DNA of 42,949 bases from Escherichia phage ZH5 (OM864357.1), one strand, 5' to 3'; counted from the stretch's first letter, positions 1,775 to 42,949 are shown. Translations and numbers: made by a program. The notes: generated by a model from the letters alone, not told the origin.

Positions 1775-1780
1775 TTACAG

Positions 1781-1808
1781 CCTATAGCATCCTATGGGGT
1801 GCTATGTG
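1781..1808 (+). promoter_or_regulatory. Conserved intergenic hairpin, copy 1 (cctatagcatcc / tatg / gggtgctatgtg)
   Basis: About 12-bp stem allowing G-U pairs; near-identical copy at 2699-2726; 25 nt upstream of the next gene start. Confidence 0.5.
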
Positions 1809-1832
1809 AAGTAATTAAACCAGGAGGCACTT

Positions 1833-6757: not shown

Positions 6758-7237
6758 ATGCATAAGTTTAAAGTTGGTGATAAAGTAGTAGTAGGCGAAG
6801 CATGTACCGGGTTTATGGAACTATTGCAACGTACTCAAGGCGTTAAGAAGTATTACACTGTAACACACACTAGTGCTGAAGGCTACTGGCTGCAACTTGA
6901 CGGTATGGTGTGTTACGGGGACCCCGTCCCCTGGTGCTCTGAATACTTTGAGCTATACCAAGAGCCGGACGACGAGCTGCCGCCTGCACCAACCTCAGTA
7001 CTCTATTACCATAGCACTGCGGATGCAGACAACTTGCAGCATATGATAGTGCAACCACATTGGGAGTTAGAGGGACATCTCAGTATCGCTATCGTGAAGA
7101 GTGGTAAAAAGTTCGATCCCCTGGCTTACGGTGATGCATTATCCCTCAACCTGGAACCCGATGCAGCCTTGCAGTTGGCACATGACCTATGCCGCATGGC
7201 TATGGATATTAAACGTAAGGAGAAAGCAAATGCCTAA
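6758..7237 (+). CDS. Hypothetical protein (159 aa)
   Basis: GGAGG 7 nt upstream of ATG at 6758; track ORF begins at TTG 6752. Confidence 0.55.
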   Translation: MHKFKVGDKVVVGEACTGFMELLQRTQGVKKYYTVTHTSAEGYWLQLDGMVCYGDPVPWCSEYFELYQEPDDELPPAPTSVLYYHSTADADNLQHMIVQPHWELEGHLSIAIVKSGKKFDPLAYGDALSLNLEPDAALQLAHDLCRMAMDIKRKEKANA

Positions 7238-7436
7238 TAAAATTATTACATACAAAATGCCACCTAAGAGTATTGTGGTTGGAATTCCGTTCACTTGGGG
7301 GTTATGCAATGCTTGGGCTATAAAGGTGGAGGATGGTGATATGTACTATCTGGAAGGTGGTAGAATGGTGAATGAGGCCGAAGAAGAAATCTTGATGGAT
7401 GGCATAGTATATGCTAATAGTATCGAGATTAAATAA
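7230..7436 (+). CDS. Hypothetical protein (68 aa)
   Basis: TAAGGAG RBS then ATG at 7230; the track ORF from 7101 overlaps the previous gene. Confidence 0.5.
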   Translation: MPNKIITYKMPPKSIVVGIPFTWGLCNAWAIKVEDGDMYYLEGGRMVNEAEEEILMDGIVYANSIEIK

Positions 7437-8227
7437 TGGACCAGCCCTGGCTTAGAGCGTGCAAGCGCCTGGCCGTGGGGCAGAGGGCACGCTTTCGGTG
7501 CTGCGGCAGGGACGCCGCCGGGGTGCTCTACAATAACCCGGATGCCTGGGAATACTATTGCCACCGCTGCAAACAGGTAGGCAAGGAGCGCAAGCAGTAC
7601 CAGCGCATACAGTTACAGGAAGAGCCGAGGGTGCAGCCCTCTGCACCTGCAGATGCAATTTGTATTAGCCAAGCGCCTGCGGAAACGCAGAGTTTTATTT
7701 ACGGATTCCTTGCTTCAAAAGGAATCATGCCTGAAATGGTGGAGGATGCAGAGTGGAGCAACGAGAAACAGCGGATACTATTCCGTGTCGGAAGTGCTGC
7801 TCTGGGCCGTGCAGTGCATGCCCGACAGCAACCGAAGTGGGTAATGTACGGCCAGCCAATAGCTTTCGCTGTCGCGGCACCTGCCGTAGCACCGGCTGTA
7901 GCTGCGGGCGCACCTCTAAAGGTCGTGCTCACCGAGGACTTACTCTCAGCCCGGAAGATACAGCACGCAGTTACGAGCTACAGTGCGTTGAACGTGCAGG
8001 CTATAGCTATGCTGGGTACACGCTTGCCCACGCAGCTAAGGGCCTGGCTGATTCAGAATCGCCCAGAAGTGATTCTGATGCTGGACAATGACCCGGCAGG
8101 GCATGCCGGGGTAGCAGCAGCACGCCGAGCACTGCGCCCGTTCATGCAGTGCCGAGAACACTACTTCGCTGCGGACCCGAAGGACGCAGAAATCAAAGAG
8201 ATACTGGAGGCATTAACTTGGACTTAA
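7436..8227 (+). CDS. DNA primase (zinc-finger plus TOPRIM)
   Basis: N-terminal Cys cluster (CCGRD...CHRC); TOPRIM-like VVLTEDLLSARK and MLDNDPAG motifs; sits immediately upstream of the helicase. Confidence 0.75.
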   Translation: MDQPWLRACKRLAVGQRARFRCCGRDAAGVLYNNPDAWEYYCHRCKQVGKERKQYQRIQLQEEPRVQPSAPADAICISQAPAETQSFIYGFLASKGIMPEMVEDAEWSNEKQRILFRVGSAALGRAVHARQQPKWVMYGQPIAFAVAAPAVAPAVAAGAPLKVVLTEDLLSARKIQHAVTSYSALNVQAIAMLGTRLPTQLRAWLIQNRPEVILMLDNDPAGHAGVAAARRALRPFMQCREHYFAADPKDAEIKEILEALTWT

Positions 8228-9743: not shown

Positions 9744-12106
9744 CAACCAGTATAATGCACATCGACTTGGAGACAGAGAACCATGAATATTATGGCTCTA
9801 AAGCAAGCCCATACTGCCCTGACAACTATGTTGTTGAGTCAGCATGGCGTATCGACACGACACAGGCTGACGGTACTACCACTGTTGGCGCGACTCAATC
9901 GGTGCGCTTCAATTCAAGAGCTGATTTCTTGGCGGGAAACAGTGCAGCAGAAGGCTGCCGGTGGTTTCATATCCCCGAAGATTGCTGGCTTATTGTTGCG
10001 CACAACGCAGCCTATGAGATTTCTTGGTTTCTCACGTACCAGCGGCAGCAGTTTGAGGCCTTCCTCAAGCGCGGCGGCAGGGTGTTCTGCACAATGCACG
10101 GGGAATACATCGCCTCGGACTTTCAGAGCATGTATCCGTCACTGGACGAGACGGCTCCTAAGTACGGCGGTACGCACAAAGTAGATGGGGTTAAGATCCT
10201 CTGGGAGCAAGGTGTATTAACCTCCCAGATTGATCCTATGCTATTGCATGACTACCTAGTGAATGGGGATATACCGAACACGGCCCTGTGCTTCTATGGA
10301 CAGTGCGCGACGTTCGCCCAGCGTAATCAGATGCAGTATGTGTGGGAGCGTATGGATGCGTTGCTGGCATGGGCATACTGTGAATGGTTTGGACTGTTCG
10401 TGAATATGCCTATTGCTCGCAAGAACCAAGAGGAGCAGGAGCAGCGTATCCTGGAGATTAAGAAGGAGCTGCAACAATACATCCCGAAGGACTTGCCGGA
10501 GACACTGGATTTCAACTTCGGCTCAGACTTCCATATGTCTGCACTGGTATACGGTGGCCCTATCAAGTATCGCAAGAAAGTACCATACGACCCTCCACAG
10601 TATGTTAAGTGTGATGCGTACCTGGTGCAGGGCACTGACGGAACATTCGTACCTTGTGATAGCACCGACGTATCTGGACCACACAATTATGTAACCTACA
10701 AAGCAGGGAAGAACAAGGGCCTACCAAAAGTGTTCCGAGTGGACACTGACGAGGAGAAACTTAAGTGGGAGGACGACCTCTACTTCTGTCCAGGCCTAGT
10801 TAACATCCAAGAACTCCCAGAGGTGCTCCGAGAGAAATACGCCGAGCGTGGAGAGTTCAGGCAAGCTCGGTGCTTGCAGGATGGGACTCCAATCTACAGC
10901 ACCAGCACAGATGCAATGGAAGCCCTAGCACGTCATGGATTTGAGTTCTGTCGATTGGTGAACGAGCTAGGCGCTCTGGAGAAGGACACAGGAACCTACT
11001 ATCTACGAACGGAGTACAACGAAGATGGGTCAGTTAAAAAGACCTCAGGCATGCTTCAATACGTCATACCTCAGAACCCTGATGGTTCAGGTATTATCCA
11101 CCACCGTCTTAACACCTGTGCCACTGTCACTGGGCGACTGTCAGGTTCTAACCCGAATCTCCAGAATCTACCGCGCGATGGGACGAGCCGGGTTAAGCAG
11201 ATGTTCACCTCTCGTTTCGGAGAGTCTGGTCGCATCACTGAGGTTGACTACTCGGCCCTGGAAGTGGTTATGTCTTGTGTTCACACTGGAGACCTTAAAC
11301 TACTGGGGCTACTGCAGTCCGGCACGGATATGCACTGCTACCGCCTAGCGTTCAAGGAGGGCAAAACCTACGAAGAGATGTATGACCTCTGCCACAACGC
11401 CGATGGGCCGGACTACAAATACTGGAAGCAGCAGCGTACGGACATTAAGCCTCCGAGCTTTGCTGCACAGTACGGGGCTACGGCTAAAGGGATTGCGTTT
11501 GCTACGGGCTGTACAGTGGAGTATGCACAGTCGTTCCTGGATAACGAGGCGAAGCTGTTCCCAGACACCATCGGATTCCGGGCGGTAGTAAAGGAGGAGG
11601 TAGAGCGCACCGGGGCGGCTGGGCGCATTTACCGGGAGCAAGCGGATGATGGCAGCTACCGCATCTACCGCATTGGCACCTGGACCAGCCCAGCTGGTGC
11701 ACGGTACAGCTTCCGCCAGAAGGAGCAGTGGAAGGAAGTAGTCCCTGGCCAGCGCAAACAAAAGGTGATGGACTACAAAGAAACTGAGATGGCTAACTAC
11801 TGGTGTCAGGGTGAGGCATTCTTCCTGATGGCGGTAGCAGCTGGTATGGTTCTGCGTGCAATGCTGGCACGGGATTGGTTCGATAATCAGGTGTGTTTGA
11901 TTACGAACGTGCACGATGCATTGTATCTGGATAGTGCTAATCCGGAAGTAGGCAGAGAGGCGAGCCTGTTGGTCAAGCAGTGTATGGAGGATGCACCTAA
12001 GCGTATCCACCAGCTCTGGCCTAACTACGGCATAATTGGTGAGGTCCCGTTCCCAGCGGAAGCTGAAATGGGTACAAGCATGTACAGTAAGGAGAAAGTA
12101 GAATGA
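9740..12106 (+). CDS. DNA polymerase, family A (T7 gp5-like) with 3'-5' exonuclease domain
   Basis: Pol A motifs DYSALEV (A), KPPSFAAQYG (B) and VHDALY (C); 788 aa; GGAGGTG RBS. Confidence 0.9.
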   Translation: MTTSIMHIDLETENHEYYGSKASPYCPDNYVVESAWRIDTTQADGTTTVGATQSVRFNSRADFLAGNSAAEGCRWFHIPEDCWLIVAHNAAYEISWFLTYQRQQFEAFLKRGGRVFCTMHGEYIASDFQSMYPSLDETAPKYGGTHKVDGVKILWEQGVLTSQIDPMLLHDYLVNGDIPNTALCFYGQCATFAQRNQMQYVWERMDALLAWAYCEWFGLFVNMPIARKNQEEQEQRILEIKKELQQYIPKDLPETLDFNFGSDFHMSALVYGGPIKYRKKVPYDPPQYVKCDAYLVQGTDGTFVPCDSTDVSGPHNYVTYKAGKNKGLPKVFRVDTDEEKLKWEDDLYFCPGLVNIQELPEVLREKYAERGEFRQARCLQDGTPIYSTSTDAMEALARHGFEFCRLVNELGALEKDTGTYYLRTEYNEDGSVKKTSGMLQYVIPQNPDGSGIIHHRLNTCATVTGRLSGSNPNLQNLPRDGTSRVKQMFTSRFGESGRITEVDYSALEVVMSCVHTGDLKLLGLLQSGTDMHCYRLAFKEGKTYEEMYDLCHNADGPDYKYWKQQRTDIKPPSFAAQYGATAKGIAFATGCTVEYAQSFLDNEAKLFPDTIGFRAVVKEEVERTGAAGRIYREQADDGSYRIYRIGTWTSPAGARYSFRQKEQWKEVVPGQRKQKVMDYKETEMANYWCQGEAFFLMAVAAGMVLRAMLARDWFDNQVCLITNVHDALYLDSANPEVGREASLLVKQCMEDAPKRIHQLWPNYGIIGEVPFPAEAEMGTSMYSKEKVE

Positions 12107-12324
12107 CTATTAAACCGGGTAGTATTGTGGAGATACTAGGACTTGGGCCGGAACCCTTAGAACCTAGACATCGTGATTACTTTGCACCGGGCACACAGCA
12201 TCGTGTGATATCTTATGATCCTGAATTCTGGGAGGTGGAGTTAATGAATCCAGACAATAATTCAGAGAAGCCTGGGGATGGTATTACCTTCTTCTCTGGA
12301 GAGTACAAACTTATAGCGGAGTGA
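12103..12324 (+). CDS. Hypothetical protein (73 aa)
   Basis: AAGGAG RBS; ATG overlaps the polymerase stop. Confidence 0.55.
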   Translation: MTIKPGSIVEILGLGPEPLEPRHRDYFAPGTQHRVISYDPEFWEVELMNPDNNSEKPGDGITFFSGEYKLIAE

Positions 12325-12419
12325 TGATAGGTGTACCCTTGGGTGGTGTAGGGGGTTAGGGTAACATGGAAATACGCTAGGGTCAAGTAGATAATTAAAT
12401 AAAATTATTCGTTGACTCT

Positions 12420-12432
12420 GGCTTGATTCTGT
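12420..12432. promoter_or_regulatory. 13-bp inverted repeat (ctgtga-t-tcacag) in the longest internal intergenic region; candidate operator
   Basis: Perfect 6+1+6 palindrome flanked by an AT-rich tract and TTGACT / TTGATT -35-like hexamers, about 55 nt upstream of the phosphoesterase gene. Confidence 0.3.
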
Positions 12433-12486
12433 GATTCACAGAGAATTAATGTGATACGAGTAGGAACAACATAAGAGAGGCAACCC

Positions 12487-13464
12487 TTGGCTAAAGTAAG
12501 TCTAATCAAACTATTCACCAAAGAGCAGCACCAAGAAATCCTGAGTAAGTACAGCAGTAATACAGAGGCGGCTTGGGCTTACAATGAGAGCTGCAAAGTG
12601 AGGGGTGCAGTGTCCCGCCAGCTTGTACGCTACTGGCGTAGCATCTTCATGGATAACAATGGGAGTAAAGTGAATGCTAACCGTGGTTTACAGGAAGCTC
12701 GTAAGCTTATTCAGCCGAGCCCAACCGACGACATTGGAAATACTAGCGTTCCTAGTACATGTCACCGTATTCTTGTTGTGGGTGATTTGCATGCTCCTTA
12801 TACTCACGTAGATGCTATGGACTTCCTAAAAAGTGTGCGGGATGAGTATTGTCCGGATATGGTGGTACAGGTCGGTGATGAGACTGACGGGCACGCAATC
12901 AGTTTCCACGACTCTGATCCTAACCTAGATAGTGCTGGGGTTGAGCTGGAGAAAGCCAAGCTCGTGCTGGAGGAGCTGCATGAACTGTTCCCGAACCTTC
13001 TGGTGTGTGACTCCAATCACGGCAGTCTGGTTTACCGCAGGGCGAAAGCTCATGGGCTACCAGTGCAATTTATCAAGAAGTACCGCGATATCTTGTTCCC
13101 TGAGCACGGTGCCCCGGCATGGTCGTGGGCCGATGCTTGGGTACTTAATACACCGCTGGGACCTGTCCGCTTCCAGCATCAAGTATCAGGTGACTTCATG
13201 CTTAATGCGTCCCATGAGCGCACTTCACTGGTTCTCGGTCACGAGCATGGGCGGTTCGAAGTTCAGTATGCAGCGTCTTCGACGGCACTGTATTTTGGCG
13301 CGTATGCAGGCTGCTTGATTGACCGTAAGAGTCTGGCCTTTGCATACGGTAGGTTAGCCCGTAAGAAACCAATCCTAGGCGTACTGGTAATCACAGAGGG
13401 TTGTCCGCAGCTAATTCCGATGCTGCTCGATGACGAGGGTCGTTGGGTTGGTCGTTCTAAATAA
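12487..13464 (+). CDS. Calcineurin-like metallophosphoesterase (325 aa)
   Basis: GDLHAPY and GDETDGH motifs typical of the metallophosphoesterase fold. TTG start with GAGAGG RBS; first in-frame ATG is about 54 codons downstream. Confidence 0.65.
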   Translation: MAKVSLIKLFTKEQHQEILSKYSSNTEAAWAYNESCKVRGAVSRQLVRYWRSIFMDNNGSKVNANRGLQEARKLIQPSPTDDIGNTSVPSTCHRILVVGDLHAPYTHVDAMDFLKSVRDEYCPDMVVQVGDETDGHAISFHDSDPNLDSAGVELEKAKLVLEELHELFPNLLVCDSNHGSLVYRRAKAHGLPVQFIKKYRDILFPEHGAPAWSWADAWVLNTPLGPVRFQHQVSGDFMLNASHERTSLVLGHEHGRFEVQYAASSTALYFGAYAGCLIDRKSLAFAYGRLARKKPILGVLVITEGCPQLIPMLLDDEGRWVGRSK

Positions 13465-13693: not shown

Positions 13694-14563
13694 ATGACTA
13701 TGAATGCACTGGACACTCTGAACTCTCTGGTTGCTGCTGCGATTGAAACCCAAGAAGTTGATATGACGGAGACCTCCCAGGGTGGGGCATACGAGGACGT
13801 TCTGCTGCCAAAGGGTGAATACTATGGTTACTTCACTGAGTACGTGGAAATCGGTAAGCGCCTCCCGACTAAGGGTGGTAAGCCTACTGGTAAACCTGCC
13901 GCAGCTAACGTGCGTATCGGGATTGTAGTGTATGGTCCGAACGGCGAGGTTAAGCGTATTCGTCCGTATCCGATGACTATCAGCAACTTTGAGCGTGCGG
14001 GCTTCAAGAAGTTCTTCGACAAGCTCAACTACGATGGCAGCATTAAGCACGCTGCGCAGCGACTGGGACAGGCGTTTGTGTTCCCGCTGGACGAACACAC
14101 CAGCGCCGCTGGCAAGAAGTCCAACATCGTAGACCTCGCGGCAATCCGTCCGATTCCGAAATTCGACCCGAATACCGGTGAGCCGATTAAAATGCCTGAG
14201 CTGGATGCTTCCGAGATTAAGCTGTTCCTGTGGAACAACCCGACTAAGGAAACCTGGGATAGCTTGTATATCGAAGGGACCAAGGATGATGGTAAGAGTA
14301 AAAACTGGATTCAGGAGGATATGTACAAGGCCGTAGACTTCCCGGGCAGTGCTCTGGATATTATGCTGAACGCCAGCTCAGTTCCTAGCCCAGCAGCTAT
14401 GCAGGCTCCAGCGGCCCCAGCTGCTCCTACTGCACCTGCTACACCAACAGCCCCGGCAGCCCCGGCTGCACCAGTGGCTCCAGCAGCCCCTGTAGCCCCT
14501 GTAGCCCCTGTAGCCCCTGTAGCCCCTGTAGCGCCAGCAGCACCTGCTGCGCCTCAAGCCTAA
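13694..14563 (+). CDS. Hypothetical protein (289 aa) with C-terminal Pro/Ala/Val-rich tail
   Basis: GAGGA RBS; the C-terminal ~50 aa are (A/V)P-type repeats encoded partly by a 9-bp tandem repeat. Confidence 0.6.
   Translation: MTMNALDTLNSLVAAAIETQEVDMTETSQGGAYEDVLLPKGEYYGYFTEYVEIGKRLPTKGGKPTGKPAAANVRIGIVVYGPNGEVKRIRPYPMTISNFERAGFKKFFDKLNYDGSIKHAAQRLGQAFVFPLDEHTSAAGKKSNIVDLAAIRPIPKFDPNTGEPIKMPELDASEIKLFLWNNPTKETWDSLYIEGTKDDGKSKNWIQEDMYKAVDFPGSALDIMLNASSVPSPAAMQAPAAPAAPTAPATPTAPAAPAAPVAPAAPVAPVAPVAPVAPVAPAAPAAPQA
14487..14531 (+). repeat. Tandem repeat, 5 x 9-bp (cccctgtag), in frame inside the 13694-14563 CDS
   Basis: Five perfect adjacent units encoding the PVA repeats. Confidence 0.85.
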
Positions 14564-16894: not shown

Positions 16895-17265
16895 CGGACG
16901 TTATTCTAGGTAAATGCGCAGGTTATTGTAAGGCTTGCGCTGGGGATATCAGATACCCTCACAGAGACTCTTTAGCTGTTAGGATGCAAAGACTTAAACC
17001 AGCAACTACACAGGAACCTACTGCACCTGTAATCACTGACGCAGTGAACTCCCCGAAGCACTATCAGTTCTTCCCGGACCTAGAGGCTATCGAAGTTATC
17101 GCTCGTAGCATGACTCAGGAGCAGTTCTACGGCTATTGTCTGGGTAACAGATTAAAATACAGACTCCGAGCCGGGAACAAGGATAAACTGGAGCAGGACA
17201 TTGCTAAGTCCGACAAGTACTCAGAACTGTATGAACAACACCGAGGTAAGTGCATTGATGCCTAG
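16891..17265 (+). CDS. Hypothetical protein (124 aa), possibly DUF3310-like
   Basis: Contains an SPKHYQ motif that I recall from a phage domain of unknown function; weak recognition only. Confidence 0.5.
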   Translation: MTDVILGKCAGYCKACAGDIRYPHRDSLAVRMQRLKPATTQEPTAPVITDAVNSPKHYQFFPDLEAIEVIARSMTQEQFYGYCLGNRLKYRLRAGNKDKLEQDIAKSDKYSELYEQHRGKCIDA

Positions 17266-17409
17266 TGCATGGTGTCACATGATGTGGCAGAAAGCAATAG
17301 AGCGGGGCGATGAAAGCTCCGCTAATGACTACCTGGAGATGTACAATCTCTGGGTAAGTCGAAACCTGTAGTTAGAAATACCGGACATAACCAAGGAGAC
17401 TAAGCGCCT

Positions 17410-19878
17410 ATGATTAGCGCCCTGAATACGGTTGTAGTACCAGAGGAAGCACTGGTGGAACGTCAGCTGGAGCTTGAAGAGACCTACAAGATTCGAGGTA
17501 TTGAGCGTGCTCGTAAGTTGATTACTGATGCTCTGCAGAATGGCGGGATTATGAACCTGCCAATGACTCAGCGCATGCTCACCTCTGCGTACGACGTGGC
17601 CTCTGTAGCCATTGAGGAAATGCGTAATGCCAAAGCCCCGGGTATCGGTGGAAAGTACCGCCGATTCCTACGCTTAGTCCCCTTGGATGTTCTAACTACT
17701 CTGAGCCTGTGCACAATGTTTGAGGCGTTCAGTGTTGCCCCTGGTGAGTCCGCCAGTCGCCGCCAGACAGCTCAGGCAGTGATGTCCGCTCTGGGTAGGA
17801 ATGTACAGTCAGAGCTGCTGGCCCTACAACTACGTAACGTTGCCCCAGCGTATATGGACCGGGTATATGAATACCTCACTGAGCGCCGTACTAAGTCGCC
17901 TACGCACATTCTGCGTACGCTCCGCGCCAGTGCTGAGAACGTGCACTATGGGCATGAGCCTTGGACCAACGCTCAGAATATTTCTGTGGGACGTCTGCTG
18001 TGTTCCGCAGTGTTTGAGACAGGGCTGTTCCAGTGGAAGACTGGTAGCGGGAACTTGAGTATGCTCTATCCCGCAGATAATGTTATGGAAGCATTTCAGC
18101 AGTTAGTGGAATCTGCTGACACTGTAACTATGAAGCCTCCGATGCTGGTACCGCCGGTGCAACATACTACACTGTGGGATGGTGGATACCTCACCCCAAT
18201 CGATAACCGTGGGACGTACCACAACTCGCACATTGACCGCGCCAGACTGCGTGAAGTAGCGGAAGCGTTTAAGTCTGCGGACGGTATCAAGAAGGCACTT
18301 AATAAGGCGCAGGAAACTCCTTATCGCATTAATAAGCGAATACTGGAACTGGTACAAGAAGCACGGGCCTTGGGTATTGGGGTAGGTATGCCCCGCTCAG
18401 TACCGGAGCCGAAGCCTGAGTGGTACTTGGACGGCGTGCCAAAAGAGAACTACACCGAAGAAGAACTGGACCGATTCGGTGAGTGGAAGACGCGTATGTC
18501 CCTATGGTACAGCGCAGACCGTAAGCGTGTATCGCAACTGCGTAGCCTGTTGACCACGCTGGAAATGGCGGAGGAATTCAAAGATGAGAAGGCCCTGTAC
18601 TTCCCGACTTGTGTGGACTGGCGTTACCGCCTGTACTTCAAGTCCTCGCTGCACCCCCAAGGTTCTGATTTGCAGAAGGCACTTCTTGAATTCGGACGAG
18701 GTAAACCTCTGGGAGAGAGAGGGTTGTTCTGGCTTAAAGTGCACGTCGCCACTTGCTTTGGTTATGACAAAACCCTATTCAAAGACCGCGCAGATTGGGT
18801 TGATAAAAATATGGCAGTTGTCCGCTCAGTTGCAGAGAATCCATTTGATTCGGACGCTTTTAAGCAGGCCGATTCACCGTGGTGTTTCTTGGCAGCAGTG
18901 CTCGACCTGGTGGCTGCTCTGGATTCTCCGTGCCCAGAAGAGTACATCTCCAGAACTCCGGTTGCTATGGATGCTACAAACTCAGGTGGGCAGCACCTCT
19001 CAGCGCTCCTGAGAGACCCTGTAGGCGGACGCCTGACGAACCTATACTGGGAGGGTAACGACAAGAAAGCGGACCTGTATATGGACGTGAAGCGCCGTAC
19101 GGACGAGAAGGTGATACTGGATCTGGACAAAGAGGATTTCGTTATCCAGAGCACGTACTGGAGAGAGAACGAAATCACTCGAAGCATGACCAAGCGTCCT
19201 AGCATGACCTACTTCTACAGCGCCACAGTGCGCAGCTGCAGCGACTACATCTTTGCAGGGGCCTGTGAAGAGGGGTATGAAGGAACAGACACGCACAGTC
19301 TCTGGAACTTATCATGCTACCTTGCCCCCAGAATGCGTAGCGCTATTGAGGAAGCTAACCCGGCAGCGGCAGCAGCTATGGGGTATCTGCAGAACCTCGC
19401 TAGGCGTGTACCTGCTAGTCAGCATCTGCAGTGGAAGACTCCACTAGGTGGGCTGGTGATGAACCGGTATTCTCAACGAGAGGAGGTGCGTGTACGTATT
19501 GACTGCATGAACTTGTCTGCCGTGCTGGTGCACAACCGTGACTTTAAGACCTGTAATAAGCGCAAGGCTGCCTCCGGTATTGCTCCGAACTTTGTGCATA
19601 GCCTAGATAGCACACACCTCATGATGGTGCTCTGTGCTGCAGAGGGTCTGGATATTGTCCCGATTCACGACTCAATGGCTACTCACGCATCTGATGTTGA
19701 TGCTCTGCACCGACATATACGCGAACAGTTTGTAAAGCTGTACGAGGAGCACGATCTTCTGGGGGATATTACCAGAGCAGCTGCCGAAGCAGGGGCGGAC
19801 CTCACAGACCTGGAGATGCCTGCAATCGGTACTTTGGACATCCGACAAGTGCTTGAATCTCCATTCTTCTTTTGCTAA
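17410..19878 (+). CDS. DNA-directed RNA polymerase, single-subunit T7-type
   Basis: PVAMDATNSGGQH corresponds to T7 RNAP motif A (D-x-x-x-SG) and PIHDSMATH to motif C (HDSF); 822 aa; AAGGAG RBS. Confidence 0.9.
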   Translation: MISALNTVVVPEEALVERQLELEETYKIRGIERARKLITDALQNGGIMNLPMTQRMLTSAYDVASVAIEEMRNAKAPGIGGKYRRFLRLVPLDVLTTLSLCTMFEAFSVAPGESASRRQTAQAVMSALGRNVQSELLALQLRNVAPAYMDRVYEYLTERRTKSPTHILRTLRASAENVHYGHEPWTNAQNISVGRLLCSAVFETGLFQWKTGSGNLSMLYPADNVMEAFQQLVESADTVTMKPPMLVPPVQHTTLWDGGYLTPIDNRGTYHNSHIDRARLREVAEAFKSADGIKKALNKAQETPYRINKRILELVQEARALGIGVGMPRSVPEPKPEWYLDGVPKENYTEEELDRFGEWKTRMSLWYSADRKRVSQLRSLLTTLEMAEEFKDEKALYFPTCVDWRYRLYFKSSLHPQGSDLQKALLEFGRGKPLGERGLFWLKVHVATCFGYDKTLFKDRADWVDKNMAVVRSVAENPFDSDAFKQADSPWCFLAAVLDLVAALDSPCPEEYISRTPVAMDATNSGGQHLSALLRDPVGGRLTNLYWEGNDKKADLYMDVKRRTDEKVILDLDKEDFVIQSTYWRENEITRSMTKRPSMTYFYSATVRSCSDYIFAGACEEGYEGTDTHSLWNLSCYLAPRMRSAIEEANPAAAAAMGYLQNLARRVPASQHLQWKTPLGGLVMNRYSQREEVRVRIDCMNLSAVLVHNRDFKTCNKRKAASGIAPNFVHSLDSTHLMMVLCAAEGLDIVPIHDSMATHASDVDALHRHIREQFVKLYEEHDLLGDITRAAAEAGADLTDLEMPAIGTLDIRQVLESPFFFC

Positions 19879-19902
19879 AAATTTAATGTTACAGGAGTAG
19901 GA

Positions 19903-20346: not shown

Positions 20347-20606
20347 GCGGTGGATTAGGTAAACTGTTAGGTAAGGCCACGGATATGCTTGGCCTTACTG
20401 ATAACGAAGGATTAGAACAACAGCAGCGCATGGCACAACAGCAGGCTGAAGCAGCAAAACAGCAGGCAGCCTTAGAGGCTAACAGTGCAGCTGACAATAT
20501 TGCTGAGGTAAACCCCTCCGGCGCGGCCTCTGCATCTGCAGATGCAATTACGTCTGAGCAGAAGAAACGGCGACGGGCAGGGCAGAGCAACCCCCTGGGC
20601 CTGTAA
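20343..20606 (+). CDS. Hypothetical virion-associated protein (87 aa, Gln/Ala-rich)
   Basis: ATG overlaps the upstream stop; immediately precedes the portal gene. Confidence 0.55.
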   Translation: MSGGLGKLLGKATDMLGLTDNEGLEQQQRMAQQQAEAAKQQAALEANSAADNIAEVNPSGAASASADAITSEQKKRRRAGQSNPLGL

Positions 20607-20615
20607 GGAGGAAGC

Positions 20616-22211
20616 TTGGACTATAAAAAGACATTAGCGGAACTGTTCCTGGGGGACCAGGATGCTGGCGTACTGGATGCGTCAGAGAAGTTTGCTGAGT
20701 GGACGCTGCCTACAATCTTTACCCGAGAGCTCTACACTGATGGGCGGCGTATGCAGCTTAGTCGAGACTATCAGAGTACAGGTGCTCAGCTGGTCAATAC
20801 AGCAGCGACTAAAATTGTAGGTGCGTTATTCCCGCAAGGTACCAGCTTCTTTCGGTTCTCTAAGAGTGCAGCCCTTGACAACTTTATTAGTAGTCTGGGA
20901 AGTTCTAGCACTGCGGAATCCCGTTTATCCGAGGTAGAGAACACCGCCTCTCAGAAGGTGTTTGAGAAGGATGGGTATGCTGCTAAGCTTCAAGCTGTGA
21001 AGTTGCTGCTTATCACCGGGAACGCATTGGAGTATATCGATGAAAGAACCGGGAAATCCATTATCTACTCGGTCCGTAACTTTACCGTTCGAAGGGACGG
21101 TAGCGGGAACGTGCTGCGACTCATTATCAAAGAGCGCGCCAGCATCCAGGACCTCCCAGAAGACATTCAAAAAGCACACTACAATGGTCGAGACCCATAC
21201 AGCGACATTGATATCTACACTGCCGCTTGTCGTAAGATTAAGCACCTTCCAAATGGAGAGGAAGCAGTAAGCTATGAGGTGTATCAAGAAGTTGATGGCC
21301 GTCGCCTAGGTGAGAGCAGCACCTACCCTGAGCTGGAACTTCCGTATAACGTATTGGTGTGGAACCTAGTTAACGGTGAGCACTACGGACGCGGTCTGGT
21401 GGAAGACTATGCGGGTGACTTTGCGCGACTGTCTGTGCTGACCGAAGCGTTGACCAACTACGAGATTGAGGCTTCCCGCCTTATCCCTATGGTTGATGCT
21501 AGTTCTGGACTGGATGTGGACGAGTTCTCTCAAGCCGAGACTGGTGAGGCAGTACAGGTTGGCGGTGGTGGTAGTAATGGTAACACCAAGTCCCCTGTAA
21601 CAGCTTACGAGGGTGGTGCAGCTCAGAAGATTCAGTGGATTGCCAGTGACATTCAGATGCTTGAGCAGAAACTGGCTCGTGCATTTATGTACACCGGCAA
21701 TGCTCGACAGGGTGAGCGTGTAACTGCTTATGAGATTCGTCAGAATGCTAAAGAGGCAGAGTATGCTATGGGTGGTGGATTCAGCATCCTCAGTGACTCC
21801 TGGCTGCGTAAGCTCGCGTACCTGTATACTATCGTGGCATATCCTAAGTTCAAGGTGTATCTCACCGAGGGCGTAGTGGATATCAACGTGATGGTAGGTA
21901 CTGCAGCACTAGCTAAAGCAGCAGCAGCAGATAAACTGCTAGAAGCTACCCAGGCTATGCAGCTGGCTATTCCTGTGCTCAAACAGCTTACTCCTCGCTT
22001 TAATGAGGATGCCTGCGTAGATTGGTACTTGGATGCATACGGTATTGTAAGTGGACCGTTCATGCTCACAGAAGAGCAACTGCAAGAGAAGCAGCAAGTT
22101 CAAGATAATGCAGCGGCGGCATCGGCAGCACAAGCACAGTCGCAGGTACAAGATCTCCAGGCAGCGGATCCTACTGTAGCAGGACAACAACTAGGCCTGT
22201 TACCGGGCTAA
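20616..22211 (+). CDS. Head-tail connector (portal) protein
   Basis: 531 aa, the size and position of T7 gp8; TTG start with AGGAGG 5 nt upstream. Confidence 0.75.
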   Translation: MDYKKTLAELFLGDQDAGVLDASEKFAEWTLPTIFTRELYTDGRRMQLSRDYQSTGAQLVNTAATKIVGALFPQGTSFFRFSKSAALDNFISSLGSSSTAESRLSEVENTASQKVFEKDGYAAKLQAVKLLLITGNALEYIDERTGKSIIYSVRNFTVRRDGSGNVLRLIIKERASIQDLPEDIQKAHYNGRDPYSDIDIYTAACRKIKHLPNGEEAVSYEVYQEVDGRRLGESSTYPELELPYNVLVWNLVNGEHYGRGLVEDYAGDFARLSVLTEALTNYEIEASRLIPMVDASSGLDVDEFSQAETGEAVQVGGGGSNGNTKSPVTAYEGGAAQKIQWIASDIQMLEQKLARAFMYTGNARQGERVTAYEIRQNAKEAEYAMGGGFSILSDSWLRKLAYLYTIVAYPKFKVYLTEGVVDINVMVGTAALAKAAAADKLLEATQAMQLAIPVLKQLTPRFNEDACVDWYLDAYGIVSGPFMLTEEQLQEKQQVQDNAAAASAAQAQSQVQDLQAADPTVAGQQLGLLPG

Positions 22212-22225
22212 CAACAGAGGTATAA

Positions 22226-24833: not shown

Positions 24834-24869
24834 GCCCCTGGTGCCTTCGGGTGCCGGGGGCTTTTTTTT
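24834..24869 (+). terminator. Rho-independent terminator
   Basis: 12-bp GC-rich stem (gcccctggtgcc / ttcg / ggtgccgggggc, with G-U pairs) followed by T8. Confidence 0.8.
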
Positions 24870-31195: not shown

Positions 31196-34100
31196 ATGGC
31201 TCAGTTTCTGAACCGAGAACCGAATCCACAGGAAAAGGATTCTGCTAAGGGCGCAACACTTAAACCTGCGCCTGCGCGTATAGATTGGAACGATGCGGGT
31301 GACGACGGCTTAAACGCACTGGAGCGTGCCTCCTTACTAGCACAAGCCAAGACACCTGCTACTACAGCTGCAGAGAGCTTTGCTTCTGGTATGGGCAACA
31401 GTATCATCGCCGCAGCTATCCGTAAAGCCTCTTCCCCAGCATTCGTCCCAGAGCAGGGGTTTGATGCTAAGAAACAACTAAGCACCGACTCCCGGGTTAA
31501 GTTGTATACTCCCAACCAGGAAGAGATTGATTACTTACATGGAGCAGTGTCTCTAGAGGACTATAACTACCGTATACAGCAGATGCTTGATCAGCGTCAT
31601 CGCGATCGCTTAATGGCTGACAACACAATAGCTGGGTTCGCTGGTGCCATAGCAGGTGACTCCCCATTTCCCCTAGCTCCGATGTCTGCGGCAGGTATCG
31701 CTGGTCGGGCTGGCTTAGCAGTACGCACTGCTATCCGCGCAGCGGATGTAGGTACGGCTGTTTATGCACAGGACCAACTGGGTCAGTCTGCGGCAGTTAC
31801 TGCTCTTGTAGCAGGTGTAGCTGGTCTAGACCAACTCTGGGATATCCGTAGAGCAGTGCGCGCGTCTACAGTAGCTGCCTCAACTACAAGAACTGCTGAG
31901 ACCGCACCTAATACTGCTACGGCAACTTCCCGCACTGCTCCGGAAGAAGTAGCAACAAGTCGCAATGGGGTAGATTCCCCTGCTGGCCCGTTTAATGCGC
32001 AAGCTGATAGTGCCGCGGCTGCTAAAACCACTGACGGTTTACCAGAAGGTTTAAGCTTGAACGTGCTGGATGATGTAGAGCACCACGCTTACTCTGGTGT
32101 ACGTGTACCCGGTATAGAGGTAGAAGTAAATCGCGGAGATAAGTTGGTTGGTGTTGTGCAGGCTTATCGTGTAGGTGATGATTTACAAGTAGCACATGCC
32201 TGGGTTGATAAATCCCTGCGTGGCAAGGGAGTAGGCGCGAGCATGTACAAAGCACTAGTTAAGCGCGCTACTGATGCAGGGTATGGCAACTTGTTGTCTG
32301 ATAGCTCAGTAACTGCGTCTGCTCAGCAGATGTGGCGCAAACTTGGTGCTACAAAAACCAAAGATTTTAAAGAACTAACGGACGGTATTGAAGGGCAGCG
32401 TTATGCGGTCTCTGCGGATGAAAAGTCCCCACTCTTTACTTTAGACTTGAAACGTCCTGTGTTTGACCCAGATGCGCCTACAACTCGTACAGCGAGGGAT
32501 GTTAATGTTACAGGAGTAGGAGAGGGGGAAGAAATCCTCACCAAAGCACTGGATGAACCGATAAAAGTCCTTAGAAACAACACTACTACTGTTAACATTA
32601 AAGCGCAGGACGTAGTTCGATTCCTAAAGACCTCTGAGCATTTATCTAAGGGTCAGAAGGCTATCCTGGACACCTTGGGCGATGCAGTACAGGACATTGA
32701 TTTTAAGTTGGTGGCAGGCTCTTCTAACCGTAGCCACTACAGCTTTCCACTGGTATCAAGAACTGATAGAGGTTTTATATCTTTACGTGCCCCTAAGAAA
32801 GCTAATGGAAGTACTTGGACAACTGTAGGTGACGCCCTACGCGCCATGGACGCCGATACTAGTCGAGTAGCAGTGCACGAGCTGATTCACGCTGCCACTA
32901 CTAGGGCCCTTAAGCGGAATCCTGAAATTGCTAGTAAGCTGGAAGAGGTGCGCGCTGCAATAGCAGCTGATTCAACCCTCAGTGATAAGCTTAAGTACTA
33001 CGCAAGCGATGTGCACGAGATGTTAGCTGGACTAGGTGATAGCCCTGAGTGGGTGGAATATCTCTCCAGAACTCAATCCCCTACCGGTAAGAGTATGCTC
33101 CGCCAGATTGGTGAGTATATCATGAATGCCCTTGGGATCCGTACTAAAGGCTCCGCTTTGGAGGACGTACTAGATGCGTATGAAGATGCTGTCAAGTGGA
33201 CTGCAAAAGACTACGCAGAACAAGTTCAGAGCTTCCGCAGCGAATCCTTCCAGGACCTAGCGGGTACATCGGTTAAGAATGAGGCCCTGAAAGCTCAGAC
33301 TATGATGGACACGGCCAAGCGTAAGTTAGCCACTATGTTCTCCCTGTATGATAACATCGCAGAGGGTAGTGAGGACCTGGCACGCTTATTAGTATCTGAT
33401 GCTACTGCTGTAGGCGGTCGTAAACCGTCTGTGGTGGACTTCAAGCGTAACCTTACGTTGGAGATGGATGCTAGTGCCAGTGTAGTTGAGGACGCTATAC
33501 TTGGTGCCCTCAAGGCCAAAGGTGTAGGTTTCATAGACCGCTTCTTCCACCGTAGCAACTTCCGAGCAGCTCGTGCTGACTTAGAAGGTCGCTTGGGCCG
33601 TTACCTGGACTCTGCGTACAGTGCTGAGGTTAATGGACGCCCTGTACCTCTGCCGGACTCTGACTTGGTTCCGCTAGTAGAGGCATACCGCAACTCCGGC
33701 TGGGCCAGTAAGTGGCACGATCACATGACTGCTGCCGGACTGGTGGATGACGGTACTCTGATTAAATCGGACTATTACTTCCCTCGCCAGTACAGTTACG
33801 ATAAGATGCGCCAAGGTATTGCAAACGGTCGCTCCCTGGATAATTATCGGGATCTGTTCCGTCAGGCACTGCGTGATGTGTATCCATCTATGGAGCCTGA
33901 GGTTGTTCAGCGCGTCGCTAAGGAAATGGTTGATGGTATCTACAACGGACGCTCCTCGGCCTCTGGTCCTATGTGGAAGCAACTCATCAATGGTATGGGT
34001 AATGATGAAGTAGTTATGGCCATGCGTAATGCTGGCGTAGACGAGAGTGCAATCCAGAGTTTCTTGGCAGGTAATGTCCGAGAATCTGGCGCTACCTCGC

Positions 34101-35458
34101 CTGCTAAGAACCTCCGTCAACGTACCCGCTTCAACATGGACAAAGAGTACATCGTAGATGGTCAGGTTATGCGCATGCAGGATCTGATGGATACTGACGT
34201 AGCCAAGGTTATGCATGGTTATACTAACCGAATGTCAGGTCGTGTAGGTATGGCTTACGCCGGAGTCTCTGACCTAAAAACACTAGAGACGATGATTAAT
34301 GAGTCCAAACACGCTCTGGCCGACCCTGGGAAGTGGGAGAAGACCGTTAATGACACCATCGACTTTATCTTAGGTGGGGCACCAGCCGACGCCGGGCAGA
34401 TGCCGGACCTGCTCCGTGCAGCCGGTAACATGGCCAACGCTACCATGCTTAAGAACTCTGGGTTGTACCAGCTTACTGACACCGCTCTAGCGCTGAAAGA
34501 GTTTGGTATGTCCCGAGTACTTCGCAGTATGCGTGAGCAGCCTTGGTTTAAAGAAGGTTCTGTAGCTATTCGCACTCCGGATATGGCTAGTCGTCTGGAT
34601 GCAATCCTACGTGGTAGTATCCAGAAGGAGATGCGCTTCCGCTGGTTGAATACGTACGCCGACGATAACCTGGACTTGACCCGTCAAGCCTCTTGGTTCA
34701 ACGTCACCCAGAACGTTGGGCAGGCTGCACGTCACGTCAACGGTATGAGCATGGTGCATCGGCTGCAAGTTAACCTGAACTCAGGTATTGTAGCGGATGA
34801 GCTCCAGCAGATGTTCAAGGGCGACGCTGAGGCGTTTAAGCGTCTGGAACGTTTCGGTCTTACTCGTGAAATCGCTGACCGGGCTATTGCTGCTAACAAA
34901 GCTAATCCTGGTGCTATGTTCCAGCCGGACCTGCAAATGCAAGTTGAGGTGGTAGGGACGCGTATGATGGACTATTTGGTGCAGCAAGTACGTACCGGTG
35001 AGACCTCGCACTTCGCCCAGTTCAACCCTATCGGCAAAGTAATTGTCGGCTATCAGAGCTTCGCCCTGGCTGCCACCAACAAGATTCTGCGCCGCGAGTT
35101 GAATGATGCCGGGTGGATTGGGGTTGCACACATCATGGCATACCAGTTCCCATTGATGCTTCTAGCAACTATGGCGAAGCACGGTATGGACGGCAAAGAG
35201 GCCGATACTCAGAAGCTTATCGCTGAGTCGGTTATGGGTATGAGTGCCATCGGTGGTATCTCGCTTCTGCAGGATATCTTCACTGGGGACTCTCCGCGTC
35301 ATTCTCTGGCGTCTATGGGCTACGTCACCGGGCTGTTGGGTGCGGTGCAAGCCCTGGCTACTGGGGATATGGATATCCAGACCTTCACTAAGCAGGTCCC
35401 GTTAATCCAGGAATTTGCACCTACGCGGGCTATCATCAATAACTTCGGAGACGATTAA
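31196..35458 (+). CDS. Internal virion protein C (largest ejection/core protein) with an embedded GNAT-like signature
   Basis: 1420 aa; AGGAG RBS; N-terminal Ala-rich low-complexity region; LRGKGVGASMYKAL (GNAT motif A-like) at about 32211-32243; HELIH at 32876-32890. Confidence 0.75.
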   Translation: MAQFLNREPNPQEKDSAKGATLKPAPARIDWNDAGDDGLNALERASLLAQAKTPATTAAESFASGMGNSIIAAAIRKASSPAFVPEQGFDAKKQLSTDSRVKLYTPNQEEIDYLHGAVSLEDYNYRIQQMLDQRHRDRLMADNTIAGFAGAIAGDSPFPLAPMSAAGIAGRAGLAVRTAIRAADVGTAVYAQDQLGQSAAVTALVAGVAGLDQLWDIRRAVRASTVAASTTRTAETAPNTATATSRTAPEEVATSRNGVDSPAGPFNAQADSAAAAKTTDGLPEGLSLNVLDDVEHHAYSGVRVPGIEVEVNRGDKLVGVVQAYRVGDDLQVAHAWVDKSLRGKGVGASMYKALVKRATDAGYGNLLSDSSVTASAQQMWRKLGATKTKDFKELTDGIEGQRYAVSADEKSPLFTLDLKRPVFDPDAPTTRTARDVNVTGVGEGEEILTKALDEPIKVLRNNTTTVNIKAQDVVRFLKTSEHLSKGQKAILDTLGDAVQDIDFKLVAGSSNRSHYSFPLVSRTDRGFISLRAPKKANGSTWTTVGDALRAMDADTSRVAVHELIHAATTRALKRNPEIASKLEEVRAAIAADSTLSDKLKYYASDVHEMLAGLGDSPEWVEYLSRTQSPTGKSMLRQIGEYIMNALGIRTKGSALEDVLDAYEDAVKWTAKDYAEQVQSFRSESFQDLAGTSVKNEALKAQTMMDTAKRKLATMFSLYDNIAEGSEDLARLLVSDATAVGGRKPSVVDFKRNLTLEMDASASVVEDAILGALKAKGVGFIDRFFHRSNFRAARADLEGRLGRYLDSAYSAEVNGRPVPLPDSDLVPLVEAYRNSGWASKWHDHMTAAGLVDDGTLIKSDYYFPRQYSYDKMRQGIANGRSLDNYRDLFRQALRDVYPSMEPEVVQRVAKEMVDGIYNGRSSASGPMWKQLINGMGNDEVVMAMRNAGVDESAIQSFLAGNVRESGATSPAKNLRQRTRFNMDKEYIVDGQVMRMQDLMDTDVAKVMHGYTNRMSGRVGMAYAGVSDLKTLETMINESKHALADPGKWEKTVNDTIDFILGGAPADAGQMPDLLRAAGNMANATMLKNSGLYQLTDTALALKEFGMSRVLRSMREQPWFKEGSVAIRTPDMASRLDAILRGSIQKEMRFRWLNTYADDNLDLTRQASWFNVTQNVGQAARHVNGMSMVHRLQVNLNSGIVADELQQMFKGDAEAFKRLERFGLTREIADRAIAANKANPGAMFQPDLQMQVEVVGTRMMDYLVQQVRTGETSHFAQFNPIGKVIVGYQSFALAATNKILRRELNDAGWIGVAHIMAYQFPLMLLATMAKHGMDGKEADTQKLIAESVMGMSAIGGISLLQDIFTGDSPRHSLASMGYVTGLLGAVQALATGDMDIQTFTKQVPLIQEFAPTRAIINNFGDD

Positions 35459-42822: not shown

Positions 42823-42949
42823 GGGGGGGGGGGGCCGTCTAGACGTCTAGATGGCTAGTTGGGGGCCAGCTGGGGGCCGTCTAGGGCGCACCAGGAGGGC
42901 CGTAGAGGCTCTCTGCGCGGTCTAATGGCTATCCCTAGTGCTATCCTAT
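42823..42949. repeat. Right copy of direct terminal repeat
   Basis: Identical to 1-127; preceded by one extra G (13-G run at 42822-42834). Confidence 0.85.

Follow-up and report, generated by a model that had tools for sequence, protein, structure and literature searches.

A gp47-type metallophosphoesterase gene behind a conserved spacer with a predicted variant RNA polymerase promoter in the KP34-like Escherichia phage ZH5

The closest described relatives of the protein considered here come from mycobacteriophages. The gp47 protein of mycobacteriophage Bxb1 is needed for the phage to replicate its DNA and shows weak exonuclease activity, while A10ZJ24 Gp48, a DNase with phosphodiesterase activity, breaks host DNA into fragments and is necessary if the phage is to replicate in M. 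tuberculosis; its own authors treat it as a conserved metallophosphoesterase (MPE) of Cluster A and align it with the Bxb1 protein (PMC12287305), and through that alignment it can be placed, by inference, in the protein family PHROG 221. The replication requirement and the nuclease activity are known from these mycobacteriophage members only. On the side of transcription, the strong promoter of the KP34 RNA polymerase (RNAP) was defined as 5'-T(A/G)ATGTTACAGGAGTA-3' by rapid amplification of cDNA 5' ends (5'-RACE) and in vitro transcription, with copies listed at positions 475, 22197 and 33721 (Lu et al. 2019, PMC6834552), and this RNAP serves as an in vitro transcription enzyme. The present analysis concerns Escherichia phage ZH5 (OM864357.1), whose stretch of 42,949 bp is called here the window, and in particular an MPE gene at 12487-13464 (+ strand) together with the 162-bp intergenic region at 12325-12486 in front of it.

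The window is the complete genome of a lytic KP34-like podophage of the genus Drulisvirus (Autographiviridae, Slopekvirinae), and its completeness as a linear molecule is indicated by exact direct terminal repeats of 127 bp at the two ends (1-127 and 42823-42949), the repeats annotated in KP34 being longer, with 216 bp. Numerous podophages of this genus, from Klebsiella and Escherichia, share 83-93% identity with the window over the queried region. Every gene is encoded on the + strand, and the order is the one known from KP34: the early genes are followed by those for primase, helicase, DNA polymerase, a 73-aa open reading frame (ORF) and the phosphoesterase, and then by the genes for a 5'-3' exonuclease, endonuclease VII, a nucleotide kinase, the RNAP and the structural and lysis proteins. 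The reading that best accounts for the locus, to which a probability of roughly 0.6 is given as a whole, is that of a Bxb1 gp47-family DNA phosphodiesterase encoded behind a conserved spacer that carries a diverged phage RNAP promoter. An original prediction made from the sequence alone had singled out the same gene and spacer; its observations are confirmed in part, and its interpretation is partly supported.

The spacer separates the stop codon of the 73-aa ORF (phrog_6862, 12103-12324, + strand) from a TTG-start ORF of 325 aa, both as originally described, and its designation as the only sizeable intergenic region of the replication module holds, because small overlapping ORFs, at 7101-7436 and 17201-17371, cover the two other apparent gaps (7238-7435 and 17266-17409) that a crude ORF map shows in this block; the spacer is the longest truly non-coding stretch there. 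A total of 80 related viral loci were collected, most of which have a gap of the same length class, about 161-164 bp, and the gap was aligned between the window and 29 relatives, giving 30 distinct gap sequences. Klebsiella phage VLC3, considered as a divergent lineage, has a standard gap of 162 bp, and phiKDA1 was used as divergent lineage for this reason. The mean pairwise identity of the gap is 0.937, while in the same alignment set both flanking genes reach only 0.57 at third codon positions and 0.80-0.90 at first and second positions; this contrast indicates strong purifying selection on the spacer, whose importance had been rightly anticipated.

Conservation is distributed in blocks along the + strand. 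The G-rich block at 12325-12364 (…GGTGTACCCTTGGGTGGTGTAGGGGGTTAGGGTAA), with an identity of 0.95, has weak folding potential and no assigned function; it is followed by a segment at 12365-12384 with an identity of 0.80 and by the AT-rich tract at 12385-12411 (0.97), which is in the top three of the genome's 40-nt windows by AT content and forms, in the minimum free energy fold, an imperfect hairpin (about 12379-12419) with the flanking GGTCAA and TTGACT, the z-score of the region being -1.82. The TTGACT box at 12412-12417 is invariant and opens a segment (12412-12434, TTGACT…TGTGA) with an identity of 0.98; by our own count, TTGAC(A/T) is found at the same distance, -51 to -46, in the phiKDA1 lineage. 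After a poorly conserved segment at 12435-12443 (0.76), the identity rises to 0.993 at 12444-12470 and is still 0.96 in the Shine-Dalgarno (SD) region at 12471-12486.

The most conserved segment contains the 16-mer TAATGTGATACGAGTA (12447-12462, + strand), a predicted variant of the KP34-type RNAP promoter that matches the mapped strong promoter at 13/16 positions, or at 17/20 when the flanking T and the GGA start are counted. The substitutions fall at -10 (T>G), -8 (C>T) and -6 (G>C) and are all invariant across the genus; the predicted start is G 12463, 45 bp downstream of the TTGACT box. The element emerged from a repeat search as one of four members of a 20-nt family, D4, located at 495, 12446, 19883 and 32502, and with up to 3 mismatches allowed the 20-mer has exactly four matches, all on the + strand, versus 0 in 100 shuffles. 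The other three members correspond to the KP34 strong promoters, namely the left-end copy (TGATGTTACATGAGTA) at 496-511 (KP34 475-490), the exact copy just after the RNAP gene at 19884-19899 (KP34 22197-22212, mapped by 5'-RACE) and the exact copy within the internal virion protein gene at 32503-32518 (KP34 33721-33736), each on the + strand. KP34 also has exactly four such matches and carries TAATGTGATACGAGTA identically at 12983-12998. The 16-mer is present in 56 fetched loci, being exact in 55 and 1 nt off in the remaining one (L067), and the 25 loci without it are divergent lineages, several of which are shown as other genera. In context the element is intergenic, lies on the coding strand and precedes an SD and a start codon; a transcript starting at G 12463 would have a 24-nt leader with a good SD (GAGAGG, 12475-12480, + strand) placed 6 nt before the weak TTG start.

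The insertions found at this place in relatives agree with a promoter function. Between the promoter and the phosphoesterase gene some relatives have an HNH endonuclease gene or a 92-aa ORF, the latter annotated as "Gp5.5-like" in KP34 and, in relatives of the KP34 type, as "Gp5.5-like host HNS inhibition"; the phosphoesterase starts with ATG where an ORF is inserted, and TTG is kept in the relatives in which the promoter abuts the gene. In locus L017, as read from its sequence, an HNH gene lies upstream of the core and replaces the AT-rich tract together with the hairpin's left half, the G-rich block just upstream of the insertion being kept; L028, L056, L059 and L067 belong to the same class by gap length, about 500 bp. 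The AT-rich tract is dispensable because of this replacement, and since the promoter-like core is retained in every insertion case, the promoter seems to serve whichever gene comes first. The spacer is altogether an insertion hot spot for HNH homing endonucleases (L017, L028, L030, L031, L033, L037, L050, L056, L059, L067 and L080); the window has neither an HNH gene nor the 92-aa ORF in it.

Sister lineages provide a further comparison. Upstream of its phosphoesterase gene, phiKDA1 has the element TAGAAGTATCACGAATAGGA, which resembles two elements located just after the RNAP gene of that phage, TAGAGGTTGCACGTATAGAA and TAGAAACCACACGTATAGAA. Another locus, L060, shares its origin, an elephant-faeces metagenome (IMG 3300001598), with the EM1 RNA polymerase, for which it appears to be the source contig of about 10 kb; the element that L060 has upstream of the phosphoesterase gene, AATAGAAACATACTATAAG, is the "ORF53 promoter", which gave low activity in vitro with the cognate EM1 RNAP (PMC9596486). 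Because of the resemblance in phiKDA1 and of the low-activity counterpart in EM1, the site at 12447-12462 is predicted to be a weak, specialised promoter of the phage polymerase. The layout of these sister genera, i.e., AT-rich tract, TTGAC box, strong hairpin, promoter variant, SD and phosphoesterase gene, is seen at 1103-1177 of L086 (phiKDA1, an Enterobacter phage of the genus Koutsourovirus) and at about 2600-2696 of L060 (EM1 contig).

Two facts qualify the match to the strong promoter: all three mismatches of TAATGTGATACGAGTA fall in the upstream half of the promoter, and the activity of the strong promoter is greatly lowered by the loss of just 2 nt at its 5' end (PMC6834552). If the variant is active, once the phage polymerase has been made it could act as a weaker "middle" promoter that boosts the block from the phosphoesterase gene onward, including the exonuclease, endonuclease VII, nucleotide kinase and RNAP genes. 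The class II promoters of T7, which are weaker, non-consensus phage-polymerase promoters within the DNA-metabolism genes, are a working analogy, as T7 also places its weaker copies among such genes; the KP34-like phages differ in having a single variant and not about ten, and in that the RNAP gene lies downstream of the variant, so that the promoter would feed back on polymerase expression.

The literature searched contained neither TAATGTGATACGAGTA nor a transcriptome or transcription start site map of any KP34-like phage, and Lu et al. neither listed nor tested the site (PMC6834552). The PhageProm genome mining (NAR 2025) predicted 467 KP34-like promoters in 135 genomes, and with about 3.5 per genome the site may sometimes have been captured computationally. 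The predicted fourth, variant promoter of the KP34 polymerase, invariant in the genus, is apparently unreported and is absent from the published promoter set; TAATGTGATACGAGTA may be the missing "middle" promoter of the KP34 transcription scheme.

It is conceivable, though on balance unlikely, that the spacer is instead, or in addition, a host sigma-70 promoter made of a UP-like AT tract and TTGATT-N18-TAATGT, with a -10 that overlaps the phage promoter, from which the host polymerase would express the downstream genes, including the RNAP gene, before any phage polymerase exists. Gene order implies that the genes up to that of the RNAP must first be host-transcribed, the TTGACT and TTGATT hexamers hardly vary, nor does the AT tract (0.97-0.98), and TAATGT retains the key -10 positions (TA...T). 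However, with 7/12 consensus positions TTGATT-N18-TAATGT falls under the threshold of the consensus scan and was not reported; in the only sigma-70 site that the scan did report, TGGAAA-N17-GATAAT at 12367-12395, the -35 is poorly conserved, and the number of sigma-70 sites is under the shuffle expectation. In addition, TTGACT has no acceptable -10 hexamer 16-18 bp downstream, phiKDA1 and EM1 have a hairpin after the TTGAC box and no -10 at the right distance, and the AT tract is removed by HNH insertions in some relatives. The scan of the gap for sigma-70 promoters and terminators found nothing convincing and no terminator-like site. The original prediction was correct on the presence of the hexamers (TTGACT 12412-12417, TTGATT 12423-12428) and of the AT-rich tract (about 12385-12411); the emphasis that it laid on TTGACT and TTGATT is not upheld.

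The gene behind the spacer encodes a calcineurin-like phosphoesterase, as had been proposed. The protein matches Pfam PF00149 with 22.0 bits versus a cutoff of 21.5, over motifs I-II only, and the PHROG 221 profile ("metallo-phosphoesterase") over residues 1-324 with an E-value of 1.6e-112. An AlphaFold2 (AF2) model of high confidence (predicted local distance difference test, pLDDT, 94.4) shows the beta-alpha-beta-alpha-beta sandwich of the PF00149 superfamily, and all the canonical ligands of the two-metal site are present in the DxH, GD, GNH(D/E), H and GHxH motifs: D100-x-H102, G130-D131, N177-H178 (as SNHG), H231 and G251-H252-x-H254 are invariant or at least 90% conserved in 142 homologues. 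Two parts can be distinguished, namely a helical, helix-turn-helix (HTH)-like N-terminal domain (residues 1-92, 12487-12762, + strand), which is specific to this branch of the family, and the catalytic domain (residues 93-325, or about 93-323; 12763-13461, + strand), which holds the ligands D100, H102, D131, N177, H178, H231, H252 and H254.

The family is large: 1,868 matches were counted in the 90% clusters, and the representative clusters number 1,613. Among the phages of the collection, 642 records contain the domain, mostly from podophage genera, including the KP34-like phages, SP6 (gene 22), Vectrevirus (K1-5-like) and Proteus, Aeromonas, Vibrio, Pseudomonas and Pelagibacter phages, and the weakest match listed comes from a 77.5-kb Tenacibaculum phage; the carriers in this collection are always annotated by fold alone. 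The placement of the gene in the replication block is the same in KP34, KpV2883 and phiKDA1; in SP6 the gene comes after genes 20-21, and the Bxb1 gp47 gene sits between the polymerase and primase genes.

Bxb1 gp47 belongs to the same PHROG, matching the profile with an E-value of 4.5e-116, and hhalign aligned the profile of the present family with gp47 at a probability of 97.6% (E 2.9e-12) over the whole catalytic domain, including the C-terminal family segment "GCLID…AF.Y.K…P.LG…P.liPM". The two proteins (about 21% identity) share their top structural neighbours, Mre11 and PolD DP1, and both are encoded among DNA replication genes without a Rad50/SbcC partner. They differ in that gp47 (of the L5 gp54 type) lacks the 92-residue N-terminal helical domain and has Q in motif I (DTQ) where the window protein has H (DLH); moreover, gp47 doubles as recombination directionality factor of a serine integrase, and the strictly lytic phage of the window has no such integrase.

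The proposal of an Mre11/SbcD-like nuclease stands as far as the fold and the metal ligands are concerned, since Mre11/SbcD has the same two-metal calcineurin-like fold with the full motif set, including the motif III His, but it does not stand as family membership. Structural identity to Mre11/SbcD is 13-19%; sequence searches of the PDB, with the single protein and with the 142-sequence profile, gave nothing meaningful and no Mre11/SbcD match, the match to the PHROG "DNA repair exonuclease" is marginal (E 0.0068), and the genome has no ORF for a Rad50/SbcC ATPase. In this last sense the enzyme is indeed stand-alone, and given the missing partner ATPase and the lack of a sequence-level relationship it is not a true member of Mre11/SbcD. 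DNA is its likely substrate, as for Mre11/SbcD. A role as proofreading subunit of the phage DNA polymerase, suggested by the likeness to DP1, was also considered, but the N-terminus of the polymerase has a DxE motif (DLET), such as 3'-5' exonuclease domains contain, which makes this role unlikely.

HTH domains of differing kinds are fused N-terminally to the phosphoesterase in several lineages, and in one of them HTH_24 and HTH_23 pass the Pfam cutoffs. Large insertions that bear the hallmarks of inteins (…GDE|C … HN/GN|C D…) interrupt metal-binding motif II in the homologues P0125, P0126 and P0173, similar ones are found close to motif I and directly behind motif V in P0174 and P0217, and P0264 is truncated at the N-terminus. 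Inteins typically occupy conserved active sites of essential replication proteins, and those found here suggest that the active site is conserved and important. The location in the replication block, the motif-II inteins and the HTH fusions favour an action on DNA, and the enzyme is most likely a metal-dependent phosphodiesterase acting on DNA, i.e., a nuclease that would aid phage DNA replication and/or the breakdown of host DNA; its N-terminal HTH-like domain may help it to engage DNA. The gene was not included in the fHe-Kpn01 toxicity screen.

A phosphoesterase of this fold could also hydrolyse small nucleotides or second messengers, such as cyclic mono-, di- or oligonucleotides, Ap4A or 2',3'-cyclic phosphates, in counter-defence or salvage, and a 2',3'-cyclic phosphodiesterase and a hydrolase of nucleotide second messengers had been among the original proposals; we consider this improbable. 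The sequence models give no basis for a phosphodiesterase of the YfcE/MJ0936/CpdA-Icc type, the only NCBIfam match being a sub-threshold one to YfcE (TIGR00040, 12.9 bits versus a cutoff of 56.25), and the comparison by hidden Markov models and structure that had been recommended, while confirming the MPE fold, brings the protein no closer to small-molecule phosphodiesterases than to nuclease-type members. Furthermore, the PHROG 221 members that have been studied act on DNA or in DNA replication, HTH-type DNA-binding domains recur at the N-terminus, the position in the replication block is fixed in lytic and temperate phages, the PADLOC models of defence and anti-defence systems gave no match, and no MPE-type second-messenger hydrolase of a phage was found in the literature searched.

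To return to the spacer, a promoter leaves the conservation of the G-rich block, of the AT tract with its hairpin and of the invariant TTGAC box unexplained, and rival or additional functions remain. T7 pairs promoters with an AT-rich origin and has RNase III sites in intergenic regions, and by analogy the ZH5 spacer might mainly be a site of RNA processing or termination, or a replication origin in which a hairpin and AT-rich DNA lie by a promoter as at the T7 primary origin. This is hardly probable, although conservation well beyond the 16-20 nt that a promoter needs, the imperfect hairpin and the extreme AT content of the tract speak for it. The fold z-score is modest, the Rfam scan of the whole window gave no match, the gap has no terminator-like site and the cumulative GC and AT skews are monotonic, without an origin-like inflection at the gap; viable relatives have an HNH gene in place of the AT tract and the hairpin's left half, and the tract lies upstream of the promoter, unlike in T7, where it is downstream.

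A more ambitious possibility, and a decidedly long shot, is that the whole 162-bp spacer forms a composite control element of replication and transcription, with a promoter tuned to be weak and the HTH-bearing phosphoesterase acting there on DNA; such a promoter could, for example, prime replication by the AT tract as at the T7 primary origin, or provide feed-forward control of the polymerase gene. If true, this would link the gp47-type replication requirement to a defined cis element.

The palindrome that the original prediction had regarded as operator-like needs correction in position and in meaning. The sequence ctgtga-t-tcacag lies not at 12420-12432 but 9 nt further on, at 12429-12441, within a perfect 7+1+7 palindrome, TCTGTGA-T-TCACAGA (12428-12442, no strand). 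It is statistically unremarkable: perfect palindromes with 7-nt arms and spacers of 0-6 number 27 in the window, versus about 18 that our own calculation gives for random sequence, and about 0.07 are expected within 162 bp. Only 7 of the 30 distinct gap sequences keep it in full, KP34 itself lacks it, an inverted-repeat finder with a minimum length of 8 gave no match in the gap, and by block identity its right arm (12435-12443, 0.76) is one of the two least constrained segments of the gap. The fold of the segment from the TTGAC box to the core is no better than shuffles (Drulisvirus mean z -0.17; window z -0.92), and the palindrome is not a conserved operator within Drulisvirus. At the homologous place phiKDA1 and EM1 have strong hairpins (z -4.85 and -3.98), so that the dyad of the window, to judge by these inverted repeats, may be a degenerate counterpart of a real element in the sister lineages. 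That it serves as operator for a dimeric regulator, possibly the HTH-like N-domain of the phosphoesterase in autoregulation, is very unlikely in spite of its placement between the TTGAC box and the promoter-like element, the inverted repeats of the sister lineages and the domain itself, since dyads of this arm length are common in the genome and this one is rarely kept and no more structured than shuffles across the genus, while the N-domain is highly conserved. The hairpins of the sister genera are lineage-specific, TTGCAGCAG-N10-CTGCTGCAA and CCCTTAAG-N7-CTTGAGGG, and both loops include ATGAAACT. A binding site for CRP, whose consensus has a spacing of 6 between TGTGA and TCACA, was rejected because the spacing here is 1.

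The gene at this locus, which lies behind a conserved regulatory spacer, is of an ordinary and widely annotated kind and belongs to a known family of phage proteins; its presence is not in itself news because it is already annotated as metallo-phosphoesterase in hundreds of phage genomes. The new points are modest: a variant promoter copy, the finding that the enzyme of Autographiviridae is homologous to Bxb1 gp47, and a branch-specific N-terminal helical domain. The link to gp47 and Gp48 offers a testable function, as replication-associated nuclease or in host-DNA degradation, for an annotation based on fold only in therapeutic Klebsiella phages, and reveals a wide occurrence of the gp47-type enzyme in Autographiviridae, SP6 among them. 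A natural, genus-invariant variant that differs at -10, -8 and -6 is also a ready probe of the promoter specificity of the KP34 RNAP.

Other features of the window concern transcription more generally. A homologue of the weak promoter W of KP34 (ACTTTGGACATCCGACAAGT, 1 mismatch) lies at 19831-19850 in the 3' end of the RNAP gene, 34 nt upstream of the strong promoter. The strong promoter at 32503-32518 is contained in the ORF of a 1420-aa internal virion protein (31196-35458) and is, by this position, an internal promoter that serves the tail-fibre, terminase and lysis genes further downstream. At the left end, a stretch of about 900 bp just after the left promoter copy (499-1406) is without ORFs of at least 40 aa and contains short "tactac/cacta" repeats; it probably holds the host-promoter and early leader region, as in KP34, where the annotated promoter is at 931-959. 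A 32-nt motif containing an inverted repeat, AGCCTATAGC.TCCTA.G.GG.GCTATGTGA, has two copies in the window (1779-1810 and 2697-2728); it was proposed as a phage promoter (Eriksson 2015) and is inactive with the KP34 RNAP (Lu 2019, PMC6834552).

A 23-nt repeat, CCTCTGCA(C/T)CTGCAGATGCAATT, is 22/23 identical between 7638-7660 and 20527-20549, i.e., within coding regions that are unrelated, one being the primase gene and the other a small ORF behind the RNAP gene; its second copy includes the perfect 16-nt palindrome TGCATCTGCAGATGCA (20531-20546). Downstream of the phosphoesterase gene, a 289-aa protein (13694-14563; phrog_862, function unassigned) has a long Pro/Ala/Val repeat tail at its C-terminus (PAAPAAPTAPATPTAPAAPAAPVAP…); its names differ among relatives ("oxidoreductase", "Fe-S oxidoreductase", "large tegument protein"), and these annotations look like spurious transfers. 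Finally, the rho-independent terminator that is conserved in the KP34-like phages, GCCCCTGGTGCCTTCGGGTGCCGGGGGC followed by T8, is found at 24834-24861 after the capsid gene region, in agreement with Eriksson 2015.

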